Positions 3,959 through 36,802 of a stretch of DNA of 64,000 bases are shown in pieces; the first letter of the stretch is position 1, and every line of letters starts with the position of its first letter. The notes beneath the pieces were generated by a model. The model saw nothing but the letters and a program-made list of their open reading frames with translations, was not told the origin of the DNA and made no database searches. This stretch comes from an uncultured Poribacteria bacterium (lineage in GTDB: Bacteria > Poribacteria > WGA-4E > WGA-3G). The position numbers and the translations under genes are program-made. Where the stretch lies: contig CATQHZ020000001.1 of assembly GCA_958296135.2 (NCBI GenBank), positions 4,512,001 through 4,576,000 of the forward strand, in the 5' to 3' direction.

Positions 3959-4130
3959 CTGTTCCCTGAAATCGCGACATATCTGGACAAGTCCGTATGA
4001 GTCTGTCCGATTTCTAAAGTTCCTGCTTCAGCACTCACCGCCTCCGAGTCACACCAGGTGTGCCTACTATGAGGTCTGACACGAGCTCCACAGGCGTTTT
4101 ACCTCTCCGTCAAACCAGCGGCGAGGGTTC
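3959..4130 (-). ncRNA. putative omegaRNA scaffold of TnpB copy 1
   Basis: Conserved 3' region after tnpB (ACGCCTGTGGAG...GAAGCAGGAA...TCGGACAGAC/CTTGTCCAG hairpin) shared with copy 2. 5' boundary approximate. Confidence 0.65.
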
Positions 4131-5189
4131 CAAATTCCTTGCAGCGTTCAAATCGCGGTCGATGCGCAACCCACAGTCACTGCAGTGATAGTCACGTTCC
4201 GATAACGTGAGGGTATCCTTCTTATGTCCACAAGCACTGCACGTCTTCGATGAAGCGAACCACTGAGAGGCTTCCTCAATCCGCAACCCTAATGCCGTCG
4301 CTTTCGTTTTCAGCATCGCTAGAAATCCCCCGAGTGCTGCGTCTGATAATGCCTTCGCCAAACGCCGGTTTTTCATCATACCTTTCACGTTCAGAGATTC
4401 GATACCGATTGCTGAGACACCTTTCACAATCGCCGTGCTTGCTTTGTGATGCGCGTCTTCGCGGATGCAAGCGATACGATAGTGGATACGAACAACACGT
4501 TCCTTCTTCTTCCACCAATTCTGACTACGATAGACTGAACGACTTAGGGCGCGTTGCGCACGGCGGAGTTGACGCTGATAACGGGCCAAGGCGCGTGGGT
4601 TTCCAAAGGTACGTCCATCAGAGCAAGTGGCGAGGGTGTTGATACCTACATCGATGCCCACGGTAGGCAACCCGCGTAAATCGGGTTTGGCTCGGGGCGT
4701 GGTTTCGACGAGCACCGATGCAAACCAACGATGCCCTCGCTTCTTGATAACAACGCGCATCACGTCGCCTTTGAACCGTAATGCTTCAAACGTCCGCACC
4801 CAGCCTATCTTCGGCAGGTAAAGCCGTTTACCTTCACATTTTATCGCATTGCGTTTATTGTCAACGCGAAACGATTGTTTACCCGACTTCCGCTTATACT
4901 TCGGAAACTTGGCGATTTTGTTTTTCCACCGTTGACACGCCGTGTTAAAATCATCGAAGACATGTGATGCCACGCGGGCGATGAGCGGTTTCTGCCATTC
5001 AAACTGTGTGTCTTTTACGGCGTTAAACCGAGTGCGCAATGTGCGGCCGTTCCGCCATTCGCCTGCTGTCAAGCCCGCTTTGAAATCGGACAAAGCATAG
5101 TTATAGACGAAGCGTCGGAATCCGGCATGCTGATGGAATTGTTGAACCTGCGCCACAGAGGGCCGCAAGGCAATATGATGAGTTTTCAT
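4110..5189 (-). CDS. tnpB: RNA-guided endonuclease TnpB
   Basis: RuvC GIDVG / GIESLNV / DRDLNAA intact; Zn finger CSACG...CSDCG; N-terminal HTH_OrfB. Confidence 0.95.
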   Translation of the reverse strand: MKTHHIALRPSVAQVQQFHQHAGFRRFVYNYALSDFKAGLTAGEWRNGRTLRTRFNAVKDTQFEWQKPLIARVASHVFDDFNTACQRWKNKIAKFPKYKRKSGKQSFRVDNKRNAIKCEGKRLYLPKIGWVRTFEALRFKGDVMRVVIKKRGHRWFASVLVETTPRAKPDLRGLPTVGIDVGINTLATCSDGRTFGNPRALARYQRQLRRAQRALSRSVYRSQNWWKKKERVVRIHYRIACIREDAHHKASTAIVKGVSAIGIESLNVKGMMKNRRLAKALSDAALGGFLAMLKTKATALGLRIEEASQWFASSKTCSACGHKKDTLTLSERDYHCSDCGLRIDRDLNAARNLEPSPLV

Positions 5190-8306: not shown

Positions 8307-8645
8307 TGGAATTGCTCCTTTGTTCGGAACGTGTTGCTATGGCTATGAATTATACCACAAAAATGTTTCGGTTTGCAACTGCAAATTACCAGGGGCATTT
8401 AGTTGTCCCATCTCTGTCGTTTGAGATGAGTTCGCCGCATCGCAAACAGTGGACATCTCTGCAGCGTCATGGCGGCGTGACAGGTTGAGACCGGGCACCG
8501 GGGAGGTTGCGCGCGTCCAAAGCGCGCCTACGGAGTTGAGTCCGCGTTCGTCCTGAAGATATATAGAGTCTACCTCAATTCTATACCAAATGTCAACTTT
8601 TTTCCAACCGAAAACGAACGCATCCGGCGTATTTCATAAAATCTC

Positions 8646-19900: not shown

Positions 19901-20542
19901 GTGACAAACTGGCACCGCGCTTACATTCAAAACGCACAGCGCGAACTAGCACGCGGCACAACGCGCAAACAGAGCCACGCGCTGAACCTTAAGGCCGCTG
20001 GCAAAAAAGTCCTTGATGTCGGTTGCGGCGCGGGAAATCTTCTTACTGTCTTCGCTAACGATTCGCCCGAACTCCTCATCGGTGTTGATGTAGATGCGGT
20101 TTTCTTGGCACACTGTAAGCAAGTCGGCGTGCCATTGTTTCAAGCCGCGCTGCCACATTTGCCCTTCGCAGACGAAACGTTTGACCTGGTTACTTGTTTC
20201 CTCGTGATGCCGCATGTCCCCGATGACACAGAGGCGTTAAAGGCACTCGCGCGCATCTTGAAACCCGGCGGCACCCTCGCCATCTCTGGACACGGAATGG
20301 GGTTCCCACTCGGGCACCTGAAACGCTTGAAACCGAAACCGCTCCTCATGTATCTCGCCACCCTGATTTATAGCATTACCGGGAGAAAATGGATGCGTAA
20401 CACGCTGCAAAACGATAAGCAGATGTGCGATATTCTCAAGGGCATCGGTGTGGTACCGGAGATGCAGTTTTGCACGAAAAAGACGCTAGGGTGCGTCAGC
20501 ACGTATTGGATTCGGGGAACTAAGATTACCGGAAGAACGTAA
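19901..20542 (+). CDS. class I SAM-dependent methyltransferase
   Basis: VLDVGCGAG, LPFADETFDLV, RILKPGG. Confidence 0.9.
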   Translation: MTNWHRAYIQNAQRELARGTTRKQSHALNLKAAGKKVLDVGCGAGNLLTVFANDSPELLIGVDVDAVFLAHCKQVGVPLFQAALPHLPFADETFDLVTCFLVMPHVPDDTEALKALARILKPGGTLAISGHGMGFPLGHLKRLKPKPLLMYLATLIYSITGRKWMRNTLQNDKQMCDILKGIGVVPEMQFCTKKTLGCVSTYWIRGTKITGRT

Positions 20543-20598
20543 TGATGAACGACACAAGCCGCACTACATAACCTATGAGCATCTCGTCAAATGTAGAC

Positions 20599-21831
20599 TT
20601 ATCTGGAAACCTGTGCAAAGTCTACGAGTCTCTGTTCGGTCAGCGGTTTCCTGCTTCTTCCGCGCACACGCGGGTTCTGATGCCAGCCTACCAAAGTAGG
20701 TGTTACAGCATCTCCACAGGCGTTTTGGCTCTCCTCAGTGCTTGAGGCGAGCTGTCGAAGGTTTATAGCGGCGTTAACGTCTCTGTCCTCTACCAATCCG
20801 CAGATACCGCAGTGGTATTCTCTGTCCTTGAGCGTCAGTTTGAATTCGCCACGTTTGACGTCTCCACAGGAACTGCATCGCTGTGTTGACGGCCAGAACT
20901 TATCTGCCGACACAATGCGGATGCCGCGCCACACCGCCTTGTATTTGAGTTTGACGAGGAAGCCGCCAAGACTTGCATCGGCGAGTGCCTTGCTCAGCTT
21001 GCGGTTCTTCATCAAACCTTTCACGGTGAGGCTTTCAATCCCAAGTGCAGAGATGCCTTGCAGGATGCGATGTGTCACCTGATGATGGGCATCGGTTCTC
21101 ACATTGGCGATACGGGCATGCAGGCGGGCGAGGCGTTCCTTCGCCTTCCACCAGTTGCGGCTCAGGAACGTCTTGCGGGCGAGTGCCTTATTGGCGCGGC
21201 GTAGTTTGCGTTCATTGACGCGCAAGGCACGCGGATTTTCGTAGACAGTGCCATCGTCCATCGTGGCGAGGGCAGAGATGCCGACATCACAACCTGCGGC
21301 GGGCAGTGCTGACGTGTCGGGCGGTTCCGGGACATCAACGTCGACGAGGATGCTGAGATACCAACGATGTGCGATTCGCTTGACGAAAGCACGGCGAACT
21401 TCACCTGTCCATCGAGGCGGTTCATGCAACCTAACATTACCTATAATCGGAAGGACGACGTGTTTACCGTCCTCCGTCATTTTGACAGTATTGACACCAT
21501 TATCAATCTGGAACGCAGGGGCAGACTTATGCGTCTTCCGTTTGGGCGCACCATTCTGTCCCGATTTGTATCTGGCGATAGCATCACCGAAGGAGTGGAT
21601 AGCATTCTTGCCTGCGTTTTGAGAACACGCGGCGAATTCGGGGAACACCTCGCGCTTCCGTGAGTTGAAGATTTTCTTCAAATCGTAGAGAGAGTTACGG
21701 CGGTCGGCGTTCCAATCAGCATGCGCGGCATTATAGGCGGCGCGTGCGAATTGCACATGCAGGTTAAATGCCTCGACCTGTTCCTCAGTTGGATGGAGTG
21801 CTATCTTCTGGGCTCGTAGTGCCATAGGCAT
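20599..21831 (-). CDS. tnpB: RNA-guided endonuclease TnpB
   Basis: GCDVG / GIESL / DRDVNAAINL, CSSCG...CGICG; C-terminal tail runs over the omegaRNA region. Confidence 0.95.
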   Translation of the reverse strand: MPMALRAQKIALHPTEEQVEAFNLHVQFARAAYNAAHADWNADRRNSLYDLKKIFNSRKREVFPEFAACSQNAGKNAIHSFGDAIARYKSGQNGAPKRKTHKSAPAFQIDNGVNTVKMTEDGKHVVLPIIGNVRLHEPPRWTGEVRRAFVKRIAHRWYLSILVDVDVPEPPDTSALPAAGCDVGISALATMDDGTVYENPRALRVNERKLRRANKALARKTFLSRNWWKAKERLARLHARIANVRTDAHHQVTHRILQGISALGIESLTVKGLMKNRKLSKALADASLGGFLVKLKYKAVWRGIRIVSADKFWPSTQRCSSCGDVKRGEFKLTLKDREYHCGICGLVEDRDVNAAINLRQLASSTEESQNACGDAVTPTLVGWHQNPRVRGRSRKPLTEQRLVDFAQVSR

Positions 21832-21835
21832 CACC

Positions 21836-21929
21836 GTTCGCCGTTGTTTTTCCTTCCTACTAAGGTAAGGTGGAGGTGAGAGACACGGCGGGATGCCGCG
21901 CTTAGTAGGTCTCACCTCCCAACGGCAAC
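21836..21929 (-). ncRNA. structured 5' leader RNA of tnpB
   Basis: Four complementary segment pairs, including perfect 10-bp and 9-bp helices that cross each other. Confidence 0.55.
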
Positions 21930-21932
21930 TAT

Positions 21933-21961
21933 ATTATACCACAAATCCAAGCCGAATGCAA
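21933..21961 (-). promoter_or_regulatory. element-encoded promoter for tnpB
   Basis: TTGCAT-17 nt-TATAAT with extended -10 TG. Confidence 0.7.
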
Positions 21962-22005
21962 GTCAAAATGCACACTGCTAGATTAGGGTAGGTTATCCTA
22001 GTATC

Positions 22006-22845
22006 TCATAGAGTTATCGCCACTGCACCGAGCCCTAAAGCGACGCAGTAATATGAAAACACCGAGAATTTGCCGCGGTTGAGCATTATCAATAGAAACC
22101 GTAATGCGAGATAGCCCACAACAAACGAGGCCAGCATCCCACCGCCGATAATATGGAGAGGTATCGCGGTATCAACGACATCGCGCATTTTAAGCACCAC
22201 CGCGCCGAGGATGGCAGGAATAGAGAGCAGGAAGGAGTATTCCGCCGCCGTTTTCGCAGAAATTCCGCACAAGAGTGCTACCGAGATAGTCGCGCCTGAA
22301 CGCGAGATGCCGGGCGTAATCGCGCACCCTTGCGCAATGCCGATAAGCGGCGCATGCCACCACCGGAGTGATGTATCCGCTGCTCCTGGTCTGCCGCTGC
22401 CGTTTTTCCCGCAGACGCGCGTTGGAAGCGCGCCCTCGCGCCGCAGCCGAGGCAATTGGAGAACCCCGCCCGTGACAATTAACATCACACTCACCAGCCA
22501 CACCTTCTCAAAAGCGGATTCTAGCGTATCCTTAAACAGCACGGCGATGAGCCCCGTCGGCACTGAACCGAGCAAAATCAGCCCGATAAACTTCAGTTCA
22601 GGTTGCTGCAGGTCGCGCCGCGCAACGGCCGCAACACCGCCGCTTATTAAAGTGCCGATAGCACTACGATAGACGACGAGGACAGCGGCGAGCGTGCCAA
22701 CGTGAAGCATCACGTCAAAGAAGACGAGCGGTTCACTCAAGCCGAGGAACGCCTGCGCAAGGACAAGGTGCCCGGAACTGCTCACGGGCAAAAATTCGGT
22801 CGCGCCTTGTAAAATGCCGAGGAGAATTGCTTCAAGAAATGTCAT
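22006..22845 (-). CDS. uppP: undecaprenyl-diphosphate phosphatase (C-terminus supplied by the IS end)
   Basis: QGATEFLPVSSSGHL, LHVGT, PGISRSGATI, YSFLLSIPAILGA. Confidence 0.95.
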   Translation of the reverse strand: MTFLEAILLGILQGATEFLPVSSSGHLVLAQAFLGLSEPLVFFDVMLHVGTLAAVLVVYRSAIGTLISGGVAAVARRDLQQPELKFIGLILLGSVPTGLIAVLFKDTLESAFEKVWLVSVMLIVTGGVLQLPRLRREGALPTRVCGKNGSGRPGAADTSLRWWHAPLIGIAQGCAITPGISRSGATISVALLCGISAKTAAEYSFLLSIPAILGAVVLKMRDVVDTAIPLHIIGGGMLASFVVGYLALRFLLIMLNRGKFSVFSYYCVALGLGAVAITL

Positions 22846-23062
22846 CGTTTTTGTATTGTCGCCAAGCGTTCGGTTAGGTTTTCTCCGCAGGGCAGCCGTG
22901 TTTACGTATCGGGCTGACGCTGCGGATGCCTTCGCTAAGTCCAAGGTAATATCATAGCAGTTTTTGCAAAATTATGCCAGCACAATTACGCCCGTTCTCT
23001 ATTCGGGCATCGGGCGAATAGAGACATCCGCCCTTACAGAACAGTGGCGGCCTCAAAAAAGA

Positions 23063-35722: not shown

Positions 35723-36802
35723 ATGAAAACGCATAATATTGCACTGCGCCCGACAACGGCACAGGTTCAACAATTTCATCAGCACGCGGGATTCCGCCGA
35801 TTTGTCTATAACTACGCTTTGTCCGATTTCAAAGCCGGCTTAACTGAAGGCGAATGGCGGAACGGCCGCATACTGCGCACTCGGTTTAACGCCGTAAAAG
35901 ACACGCAGTTTGAATGGCAGAAACCGCTCATCGCCCGCGTGGCATCACATGTCTTCGATGATTTTAACACGGCGTGTCAACGGTGGAAAAACAAGCTGTC
36001 CAAGTTTCCAAAGTATAAGCGGAAGTCGGGTAAACAATCGTTTCGCGTCGACAATAAACGCAATGCGATAAAATGTGAAGGTAAACGGCTTTACCTGCCG
36101 AAGATAGGCTGGGTGCGGACGTTTGAAGCGTTGCGGTTCAAAGGCGACGTGATGCGCGTAGTGATTAAGAAGCGAGGCCCTCGTTGGTTTGCATCGGTGC
36201 TCGTCGAAACCACGCCCCGAGCCAAACCCGATTTACGCGGGTTGCCTCCCGTGGGTATCGATGTCGGTATCAACACCCTCGCCACTTGCTCTGATGGACG
36301 CACCTTTGGAAACCCACGCGCCTTGGCCCATTATCAACGTCAACTCCGCCGTGCGCAACGCGCCCTAAGTCGTTCAGTCTATCGCAGTCAGAATTGGTGG
36401 AAGAAGAAGGAACGGGTTGTCCGTATCCACTATCGTATCGCTTGCATCCGCGAAGACGCGCATCACAAGGCCAGCACGGCGATTGTGAAAGGTGTCTCAG
36501 CAATCGGGATAGAATCTCTGAACGTGAAAGGCATGATGAAAAACCGTCGTCTTGCGAAGGCATTGTCGGACGCGGCACTCGGGGGATTTCTCTCCAAGTT
36601 GAAGACGAAAGCACAGGCACTTGGCGTGCATATTGAGGAAGCCTCTCAGTGGTTCGCTTCATCGAAGACCTGCAGTGCATGCGGACATAAAAAGGATACC
36701 CTCACGTTATCGGAACGTGACTATCACTGCAGCGACTGTGGATTGCGGATAGACCGCGATTTGAACGCTGCAAGGAATTTGGAACCCTCACCGCTGGTTT
36801 GA
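35723..36802 (+). CDS. tnpB: RNA-guided endonuclease TnpB
   Basis: 359 aa, nearly identical to 4110..5189; RuvC D-E-D intact. Confidence 0.95.
   Translation: MKTHNIALRPTTAQVQQFHQHAGFRRFVYNYALSDFKAGLTEGEWRNGRILRTRFNAVKDTQFEWQKPLIARVASHVFDDFNTACQRWKNKLSKFPKYKRKSGKQSFRVDNKRNAIKCEGKRLYLPKIGWVRTFEALRFKGDVMRVVIKKRGPRWFASVLVETTPRAKPDLRGLPPVGIDVGINTLATCSDGRTFGNPRALAHYQRQLRRAQRALSRSVYRSQNWWKKKERVVRIHYRIACIREDAHHKASTAIVKGVSAIGIESLNVKGMMKNRRLAKALSDAALGGFLSKLKTKAQALGVHIEEASQWFASSKTCSACGHKKDTLTLSERDYHCSDCGLRIDRDLNAARNLEPSPLV

Follow-up and report, generated by a model that had tools for sequence, protein, structure and literature searches.

A pseudoknotted RNA leader in front of tnpB and other genes of Poribacteria

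The region between positions 21836 and 21929 of the window, i.e. the whole 64-kb stretch of DNA from an uncultured Poribacteria bacterium analysed here, lies directly ahead of a tnpB gene and is a real structured RNA with a fold that does not arise by chance. Positions follow the numbering of this stretch, and the leader is described in minus-strand orientation. It is one of the many copies of an uncatalogued leader RNA, which in sponge-associated Poribacteria stands before hundreds of selfish and defence genes. We are highly confident that these leaders form a real, sense-strand, promoter-proximal family of structured RNAs, which probably controls how much protein is made.

A first-pass annotation of this DNA had described four pairings in the region, two of which cross each other. 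All four are present in the window copy, together with a fifth helix, P4 (Table 1). The leader is about 100 nucleotides (nt) long and its structured domain about 90 nt. P1, which carries a single bulged G, closes the domain. It is followed by P2, with 10 base pairs (bp), and by the P3 hairpin, while a 9-bp helix crosses P2 and places its 3' strand in the loop of P4. This arrangement points to a three-way junction of P1, P2-P3 and P4, in which the internal loop between P2 and P3 would form a pseudoknot of 8-9 bp with the P4 loop. The nested fold (116 nt) has a minimum free energy of -50.4 kcal/mol compared to -31.97 +/- 3.65 kcal/mol in 200 dinucleotide shuffles, none of which is as stable (z = -5.05, the pseudoknot being left out of the energy).

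Comparison with related leaders provides further evidence for the fold. The genome (5.19 Mb in 4 contigs) harbours 21 copies of leader plus promoter at 80-100% identity, which comprise three leader variants with compensatory changes in P2, the crossing helix and P4. P4 is formed by CCUU/AAGG in the window variant and by AACCU/AGGUU and CACCU/AGGUG in the other two, and in each of the three the pseudoknot strands are complementary to their own partner. A covariance model from ten copies (R1), in which the pseudoknot is not modelled, recovers all 21 copies and gives matches in 31 of 151 genomes of the phylum, i.e. in 30 besides its own. In the R1 alignment of 52 matches (50 distinct), 91.4% of the cells are paired compared to 71.7% in shuffled alignments, a value that 0 of 500 shuffles reach; pairing drops to 37-49% when the partners are slid by 1-3 columns, and 30 of the 39 pairs have changed on both sides. 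With a second covariance model (R2; 85 aligned matches, 83 distinct) the corresponding values are 92.2% and 65.2% (again 0 of 500 shuffles reach the former) and 35-45% for slid partners, with changes on both sides in 33 of 34 pairs.

Covariation, which the first-pass annotation had proposed as the check on its pairings, is found in all five helices. In the R2 alignment the P1 core is paired in 94.3% of the cells and all seven of its pairs have changed on both sides, while the outer three pairs reach 64.5%. P2 (97.0%, 8 of 8 modelled pairs), P3 (97.2%, 6 of 6) and P4 (94.4%, 4 of 4) covary throughout, and the six inner pairs of the pseudoknot are 90.8% paired. This last helix is also supported by a test that requires no alignment: over 28 distinct strand combinations the cognate duplexes have a mean energy of -11.1 kcal/mol compared to -5.1 kcal/mol for 2246 non-cognate ones. 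The idea that the two crossing helices are mutually exclusive is not supported. Compensatory changes maintain both of them in the same sequences, and the 3' strand of the pseudoknot sits in the loop of the conserved P4, which fits a simultaneous pseudoknot between hairpin loop and internal loop. We therefore read them as a pseudoknot and not as alternatives, since both are conserved in the same sequences. Outside the helices only a few bases are nearly invariant, namely a U after P3 (96%), an A before the 3' pseudoknot strand (96%), one A of the junction (100%) and one C of the P3 loop (98%). The P3 loop is otherwise variable and often GCAA in relatives, and the junction strands measure 0-1 nt on two of the three sides.

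Two points weigh against taking these values at face value. The nested structure guided the alignments, and neither the copies within a genome nor the related genomes are independent, so that the shuffle controls overstate significance. Moreover, the ViennaRNA energies leave out the pseudoknot and tertiary contacts.

The strand that folds can be read from the G-U and A-C cells. Among 2364 cells of the R2 alignment 149 are G-U and 31 are A-C, and this excess of G-U over A-C demonstrates that the tnpB-coding, i.e. sense, strand folds. The same asymmetry, together with the presence of a promoter in every unit, led us to reject an integron attC-like single-stranded DNA site. More generally, the structure or the repeats in the left end of the insertion sequence (IS) that carries this tnpB could serve as a DNA-level signal for a transposase or another recombinase, e.g. 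in single-stranded form. Serine recombinases act on double-stranded DNA, and the only recombinase beside a tnpB copy with this right end is of the serine type. The motif lies inside the left end and is common to two TnpB families with similar termini, as a DNA signal would be, and a passage of PMC5737381 holds that comparative methods alone cannot separate single-stranded DNA from RNA structure. On the other hand, the motif starts at least 100 nt inside the end and after the promoter, the same motif heads genes that have no surrounding IS, and a constant distance to promoter and start codon is what one expects of a transcript. We thus regard a role at the DNA level as very improbable.

The TATAAT noted just upstream in the first-pass annotation is indeed there (21938-21933), 3 nt before the first paired base, and forms part of an extended -10 element (Table 1). 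The predicted transcription start at about 21926 coincides with the first base of the 7-bp P1 core, and the poor conservation of the three outermost P1 pairs may be due to this start at the core. Each leader lies just downstream of a predicted sigma-70-type promoter of its own. A -10-like hexamer ending 6-8 nt before the P1 core is found in 63 of 83 distinct upstream regions, the TG of an extended -10 in 54 of the 83, and 50 of them have a -35 element matching at 4 or more of 6 positions. A second exact copy of TGTGGTATAAT, the same extended -10 core as in the IS promoter, is located at 8349-8359 (minus strand).

Table 1. Parts of the window copy of the leader and of the insertion sequence that carries it, from the left to the right end
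Feature	Positions	Strand	Sequence and remarks	Basis
IS left end	22020..22035	-	begins GGGCTCGGTGCAGTGG at 22035	21-copy flank alignment; similarity lost upstream
Promoter-like region	21933..21961	-	TTGCAT 21961-21956, 17-nt spacer, extended -10 TGgTATAAT 21941-21933	by-eye reading
P1 5' strand	21920..21929	-	GUUGCCGUUG (21929-21920); core GCCGUUG 21926-21920 begins at the predicted RNA 5' end	
P2 5' strand	21910..21919	-	GGAGGUGAGA (21919-21910); pairs with UCUCACCUCC	sequence, fold and covariation
Pseudoknot 5' strand	21901..21909	-	CCUACUAAG (21909-21901), internal loop between P2 and P3; pairs with CUUAGUAGG	sequence and covariation
P3 hairpin	21884..21900	-	CGCGGC (21900-21895), AUCCC, GCCGUG (21889-21884)	fold and covariation
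P2 3' strand	21872..21881	-	UCUCACCUCC (21881-21872)	sequence, fold and covariation
P4 hairpin	21852..21870	-	CCUU (21870-21867) with AAGG (21855-21852); 11-nt loop with pseudoknot 3' strand CUUAGUAGG (21864-21856)	fold and copy alignment
J4/1 junction strand	21847..21851	-	A-rich, AAAAA here; UAAA in most relatives, one A invariant	
P1 3' strand, proximal copy	21836..21846	-	CAACGGC-G-AAC (21846-21836)	sequence, fold and covariation
P1 3' strand, distal tandem copy	21831..21839	-	GAACGGUGA; occupies the usual Shine-Dalgarno place	repeat analysis
tnpB	20599..21825	-	408 aa from the conserved ATG 21825-21823	OrfB_IS605, Cas12f1-like_TNB and HTH_OrfB_IS605 domains
IS right end	20559..20640	-	ends in UAUGUAGUGCGG at 20559; presumably the omega-RNA scaffold region, judging from general TnpB knowledge	alignment of 13 family-A 3' ends

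The leader does not correspond to a known RNA family. Rfam 15 comprises 4227 models, among them IS605-orfB-I, HEARO, RAGATH-18, the group I introns, the HDV, twister and hammerhead ribozymes and the riboswitches. A search of 20000-22600 with these models (E up to 10) gave no match at the leader, the only match in this interval being sR28 at 20322-20353 with 11.9 bits compared to a gathering score of 39. For 20 diverse members (36,115 nt, E up to 1) Rfam 15 likewise gave no leader match, and two chance matches to small nucleolar RNAs fall elsewhere. The comparison with Rfam suggested in the first-pass annotation thus returned no known family and, with covariation in every helix, its proposal of an undescribed structured RNA in the 5' leader is borne out. 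ARAGORN found no transfer RNA or transfer-messenger RNA gene in 21700-22100, and a tRNA-like element was rejected on this basis. An IStron was rejected as well, as had been argued from length: a group I core of more than 200 nt would be expected at the 5' end, while the domain measures about 90 nt and has no Intron_gpI match. In the open-access literature we found no description of a structured 5' leader of tnpB, and a search there for Poribacteria together with TnpB or an RNA motif gave nothing.

The known RNAs of TnpB lie at the 3' end of the gene, as the first-pass annotation had pointed out, whereas the structure described here is upstream of the start codon at 21825 and the right end is at 20559. 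The omega RNA or reRNA of TnpB is likewise a structured, pseudoknotted RNA from the same kind of element. However, it is located 3' of tnpB, overlaps the right end and carries the guide, while the leader is located 5', behind a promoter, with no guide position at an element boundary. PMC11061315 deals with RAGATH-18-derived guide RNAs of IS607 TnpBs, and RAGATH-18 has no match in 20000-22600. We rejected the assignment as omega RNA or reRNA on account of the position upstream of tnpB and not at the right end, and of the roughly 41 of 112 copies that precede other genes. Structured motifs of the IS605-orfB type, which stem from comparative screens of intergenic regions, are found upstream of IS605-type orfB (tnpB) and have no known function; IS605-orfB-I resembles the leader in being such a structured motif. 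It is RF03065, part of Rfam 15 according to a passage of PMC11701678. The leader differs in that it has no covariance-model match to IS605-orfB-I and heads genes other than tnpB too.

With respect to function, the closest known systems are the leaders of IS200 and IS10 transposase genes; with respect to architecture they are the junction riboswitches, and the leader is a member of neither. The hairpin in the IS200 tnpA leader and the fold-back inhibition of IS10 are 5' structures controlling the translation of transposase messenger RNA (mRNA). As in these systems, the leader is a cis structure in the message of a mobile element that could mask the ribosome-binding region and hold down the level of a harmful protein. 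The IS200 and IS10 structures are simple, element-specific hairpins, whereas the Poribacteria leader is a pseudoknotted junction with a duplicated P1 strand and also precedes non-transposon genes. Junction riboswitches such as the purine riboswitch use loop-loop contacts and strand exchange in P1. They share with the leader a three-way junction closed by P1, a contact between the arms and an alternative pairing of the P1 3' strand near the start codon. In contrast, the contact in the leader is a helix of 8-9 bp between an internal loop and a hairpin loop, the junction strands are nearly absent and few unpaired bases are conserved.

The order of the crossing strands is also that of ribozymes of the hepatitis delta virus (HDV) type, which fold into a nested double pseudoknot with a 3-bp P3, an L3/P1.1 pairing and a catalytic C in J4/2. 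The leader, with the succession P2 5' strand, pseudoknot 5' strand, P3 hairpin, P2 3' strand and pseudoknot 3' strand, has the same 5'-to-3' order (A, B, nested hairpin, A', B') as P1, P2 and P3 of HDV-like ribozymes, and many copies in one genome beside unrelated genes are typical of small ribozymes. It could thus be a stand-alone or processed RNA, i.e. a self-cleaving ribozyme or a stable small RNA released from the 5' end of the mRNA, acting as an insulator or in trans. Several observations speak against this. The nested hairpin P3 has 5-6 bp and a variable loop of 4-6 nt, unlike the 3-bp P3/L3/P1.1 core of HDV-like ribozymes, an outer P1 encloses the whole domain, and neither a P1.1 nor a conserved position for a catalytic C is present. 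The Rfam searches above, even at E up to 10 or 1, gave no ribozyme match, and with no HDV-family match we rejected an HDV-like ribozyme in particular. Furthermore, conserved unpaired nucleotides are scarce, the motif begins directly at a promoter of its own with nothing upstream to remove, and no terminator follows it. Altogether we consider a ribozyme or small RNA improbable.

A further feature of the leader, not mentioned in the first-pass annotation, is a duplication of the P1 3' strand, which is present twice head to tail. In the window the tandem reads CAACGG-CG-AACGG, with the second AACGG within 21839-21831, and other lineages have CAAACUGG-AACUGG, CGCGAU-A-CGCGAU, AACGGAU-AACGGAU or CGUGAU-A-CGUGA. 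An exact repeat of at least 5 nt with an offset of 5-7 that is complementary to the 5' strand is found in 88 of 108 distinct leaders, whereas 100 tail shuffles yield 2.1 on average and at most 6; in most of the remaining 20 leaders the repeat is imperfect. Between the end of the distal copy and the start codon lie a median of 6 nt (range 4-13), and 82 of 96 distinct tails carry an aligned start codon at the motif's 3' end. Only 4 of these 82 abutting start codons have a 4-nt core of a Shine-Dalgarno (SD) sequence at -18 to -4. As to the window copy, the ATG that the first-pass annotation placed 4 nt after the last pair exists (21831-21829), but most sister copies have ACG there; the start codon common to all 21 copies in the genome is 21825-21823, 6 nt further on in the same frame.

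Folds constrained to the proximal or the distal copy differ by only -0.23 +/- 2.06 kcal/mol, with a difference of at most 2 kcal/mol in 65 of 94 leaders; 49 of the 94 favour the proximal and 39 the distal register. The region from -13 to +3 is unpaired to 77% in the proximal state and to 43% in the distal state. In the window copy the G at 21926 favours the proximal register (-14.8 vs about -10 kcal/mol), while most sister copies have A at this position, which favours the distal one (-8.9 kcal/mol for the proximal vs -14.4 kcal/mol). A candidate alternative pairing of the leader lies at P1, via the duplicated 3' strand. That this duplication makes the leader bistable is a tentative proposal, which we are inclined to doubt.

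That the leader acts in cis on stability or translation is, in our judgement, reasonably likely, and as a whole the best explanation of the data may be a cis-acting leader that controls mRNA stability and translation and is possibly bistable, for which we see about an even chance. According to this model the transcript would begin with the first base of P1 or no more than about 2 nt away from it, so that its 5' end would be clamped in a 7-bp stem. The 8-9 nt of the P2/P3 internal loop would pair with the P4 loop and tie the two arms side by side, with the A-rich strand (UAAA) closing the three-way junction, and the resulting compact 5'-terminal domain may protect the message. Pairing of the P1 5' strand with the proximal copy would leave the initiation region open and pairing with the distal copy would cover it, and the choice of register might then set or switch the translation of costly gene products, here TnpB. 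We take the structure and its conservation, the folding strand, the position relative to promoter and start codon, the gene partners and the tandem repeat as shown, and infer transcription, the effects on stability and translation, and the two-state behaviour.

Several findings tell against parts of this model. A simple promoter scan of the window copy did not call the promoter, which it missed because the -35 element matches at only 3 of 6 positions, and with four DNA-type runs of one study as the only sequencing runs listed for this organism, the start site as well as transcription itself are predictions. In three instances from a defence island the motif keeps its tandem repeat, yet a further 50-130 nt of leader with a canonical SD (AGGAGA, AGGAAA or GGAGG) come before the gene; the distal copy can therefore not serve in every case to cover the ribosome site. 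Of 100 positions at which the copies disagree, 34 still pair with the 5' strand compared to 25 expected by chance, which is a weak signal for distal pairing. Finally, the distal region is not in register in the alignment.

Alternatively, the leader might respond to a signal, as a riboswitch-like or protein-responsive sensor in which the junction and pseudoknot domain binds a small molecule or a factor of host or phage origin and the binding picks the P1 register; a whole set of selfish and anti-phage genes (those for TnpB, restriction-modification methyltransferases, AbiTii and others) would then share this signal. Such a sensor would be in line with the likeness to junction riboswitches (P1-closed junction, long-range contact and alternative P1 pairing), with gene partners that are functionally coherent as mobile or defence genes, and with the few nearly invariant unpaired positions (the U, the A, the junction A and the P3-loop C). 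By generic riboswitch criteria alternative P1 registers are present, and only about four unpaired positions are conserved to at least 95%. However, these four nucleotides and junction strands of 0-1 nt on two of three sides give a pocket hardly any space. The loop of P3 varies, neither a ligand nor a partner protein emerged as a candidate, and in most instances the motif adjoins the start codon and lacks a distinct expression platform. A sensor is thus unlikely in our view, and we see little likelihood in the wider scenario that a pseudoknotted, bistable leader shared by hundreds of selfish and anti-phage genes switches its P1 register in response to a common signal, such as infection, stress or a host factor, and was captured by insertion sequences.

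The constant position immediately behind a promoter would also suit an element acting on transcription, i.e. an RNA that modifies the polymerase after initiation (antitermination of the put or EAR type) and allows read-through of operons or insertions. Some instances indeed head multi-gene defence clusters and have extra leader before the first gene. Most instances, however, lie at a fixed short distance from the start codon of a single gene, which points to translation, and there is no likeness to the antitermination RNAs of Rfam. We judge antitermination to be quite improbable.

To describe the genes behind the leader we classified 117 entries, comprising the 21 own copies, loci from the model searches and 40 further regions, which are all the remaining listed matches of five genomes. 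The set is therefore no random sample, and at least 5 entries are duplicates of one place. The leaders are followed by 54 intact and 17 broken tnpB genes and by 46 other genes (about 41 distinct), which corresponds to tnpB behind 71 of about 112 copies and unrelated genes behind about 41. The TnpBs belong to several families with 28-46% identity to the window TnpB. The other partners comprise four N6_N4 or D12 DNA methyltransferases, scored as Type II by PADLOC, an AbiTii, a T5orf172 protein, some 15 small proteins (103-145 aa) whose N-termini resemble signal peptides, and unknowns. In one genome three leaders are found within 20 kb of a defence island.

This island (L274, G066:C1:5000-24999 on a 140-kb contig) encodes a T5orf172-HTH protein, a cNMP-binding TIR (Pycsar-like) effector, HSDR_N, a Type I/IIG methylase of 1000 aa, SNase, HNH and ThsB-TIR genes, and besides three strong leader instances it contains two very weak ones. 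The units of leader and small open reading frame (ORF) can run head to tail (L101 at 866-972 and 1501-1607, L081 and L123), each with its own promoter and a secreted-looking protein of 117-134 aa, in a cassette-like manner.

Given that tnpB follows 71 of about 112 copies, intact or broken, the leader could be a second TnpB-associated non-coding RNA, tracrRNA-like or a decoy, which works with the nuclease; this was among the suggestions of the first-pass annotation. The presence of the same motif before methyltransferase, AbiTii, T5orf172, small secreted-protein and defence-island genes contradicts it, and the share of unrelated genes (about 41 of 112) largely refutes the idea. Evidence from the genome itself points the same way. 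The window-type variant (92-100% identity to a 171-nt query of leader plus promoter) precedes two TnpB families of 11 and 10 copies that share 42-46% protein identity, and the right-end RNAs of these families differ except for the terminal 20 nt or so; the leader has thus been exchanged between TnpB families with different guide-RNA regions. A third TnpB family of about eleven copies in the same genome has no match to the leader model. Two of its members lie in the window (4125-5189, minus strand, and 35723-36784, plus strand; 368 aa, about 45% identical), and their 5' regions are short and apparently unstructured. A partnership with the nuclease therefore deserves hardly any credence. The swap between TnpB families and the non-tnpB partners indicate that the leader is a portable module and not a nuclease partner.

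The distribution of the module was analysed with R2 in 151 genomes of the phylum and 41 sampled genomes of the family, the counts including the own genome. R2 gives about 630 matches in 85 of the 151 genomes with up to 36 per genome (150 matches were itemised and 480 more counted only), and it is found in 27 of the 41 genomes of the family sample. By family the motif is present in 79 of 99 genomes of f1, 5 of 26 of f3 and 0 of 25 from seven other families, and by genus in 55 of 57 genomes of g3 and 22 of 38 of g2. None of the other sampled genomes of the own genus has it (0 of 2 in the family sample, 0 of 1 in the phylum sample). Among the 151 phylum genomes the motif was thus found in one order of Poribacteria and two of its families. 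On viral contigs the pattern GGTGGCACTRCNAAGC gave 108 stretches, and running the model on 80 loci left 1 true instance (L178, 57 bits); the remaining pattern matches look like chance, and a second, class-I pattern gave no match on viral contigs. The true instance (L178:328-430, minus strand) lies on an IMG/VR contig of 78.7 kb and is followed by a broken methylase-like N-terminus and an HNH-type ORF.

The element that carries the window copy is a non-autonomous insertion sequence with tnpB only, a sister copy of which is accompanied by an IS607-type serine-recombinase gene. The element measures 1,477 bp (22035-20559), tnpB is its sole gene and no tnpA is present. The genome has 36 TnpB matches, while a protein search of the named genome collection with TnpB yielded 2 loci only, both from one metagenome-assembled genome of an uncultured Poribacteria bacterium. 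Y1-transposase gives only 2 weak matches in the genome, neither of which adjoins tnpB. In one copy (L030), with a TnpB that is 86% identical and the same right end, an ORF with a resolvase domain lies directly upstream (L030:876-1538; G000:C1 about 3725943-3726605). It encodes a MerR-like helix-turn-helix followed by a serine recombinase, the combination in TnpA that defines IS607, and no other tnpA-like gene was found next to any tnpB copy with this right end. A single in-frame TGA follows codon 25 of the ORF, which is otherwise open over 220 codons, so that it is either a pseudogene or read through. This copy has no structured leader and has the promoter core TGTGGTATAATATAG in common.

The ends of the element and its flanks show some further features. 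The left end (22006-22035, minus strand) supplies the last 30 nt or so, i.e. about 10 codons and the stop, of the upstream uppP/BacA ORF (22006-22944), in which residues 39-305 of 312 make up a complete BacA Pfam domain. Three loci of the genome (L008, L009 and L017; G000:C1 near 3122277, 4732776 and 203089) share an insertion of about 100 nt between the terminal 60 nt or so and the promoter, which contains inverted repeats and may be a nested small mobile element. About 60 nt beyond the right end a terminator-like hairpin (20482-20497, minus strand; GACGC-ACCCUA-GCGUC followed by UUUUU) sits between tnpB and a convergent methyltransferase gene (19901-20542).

TnpB is the ancestor of Cas12 and a tool for genome editing. 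The leader adds a well-supported new RNA fold and a putative control of TnpB expression of which we found no description in the open-access literature. It means that within one bacterial lineage a portable cassette of promoter and leader is common to insertion sequences and defence genes, and in this cassette the leader takes the Shine-Dalgarno place at a fixed distance from the start codon. This offers a clean system in which to study the control of translation or stability by a pseudoknotted domain at the 5' end and a duplicated helix strand, and a candidate part for the control of toxic genes. If the module were to sense a signal, the expression of transposons and defence genes in these Poribacteria would be linked to a common switch.

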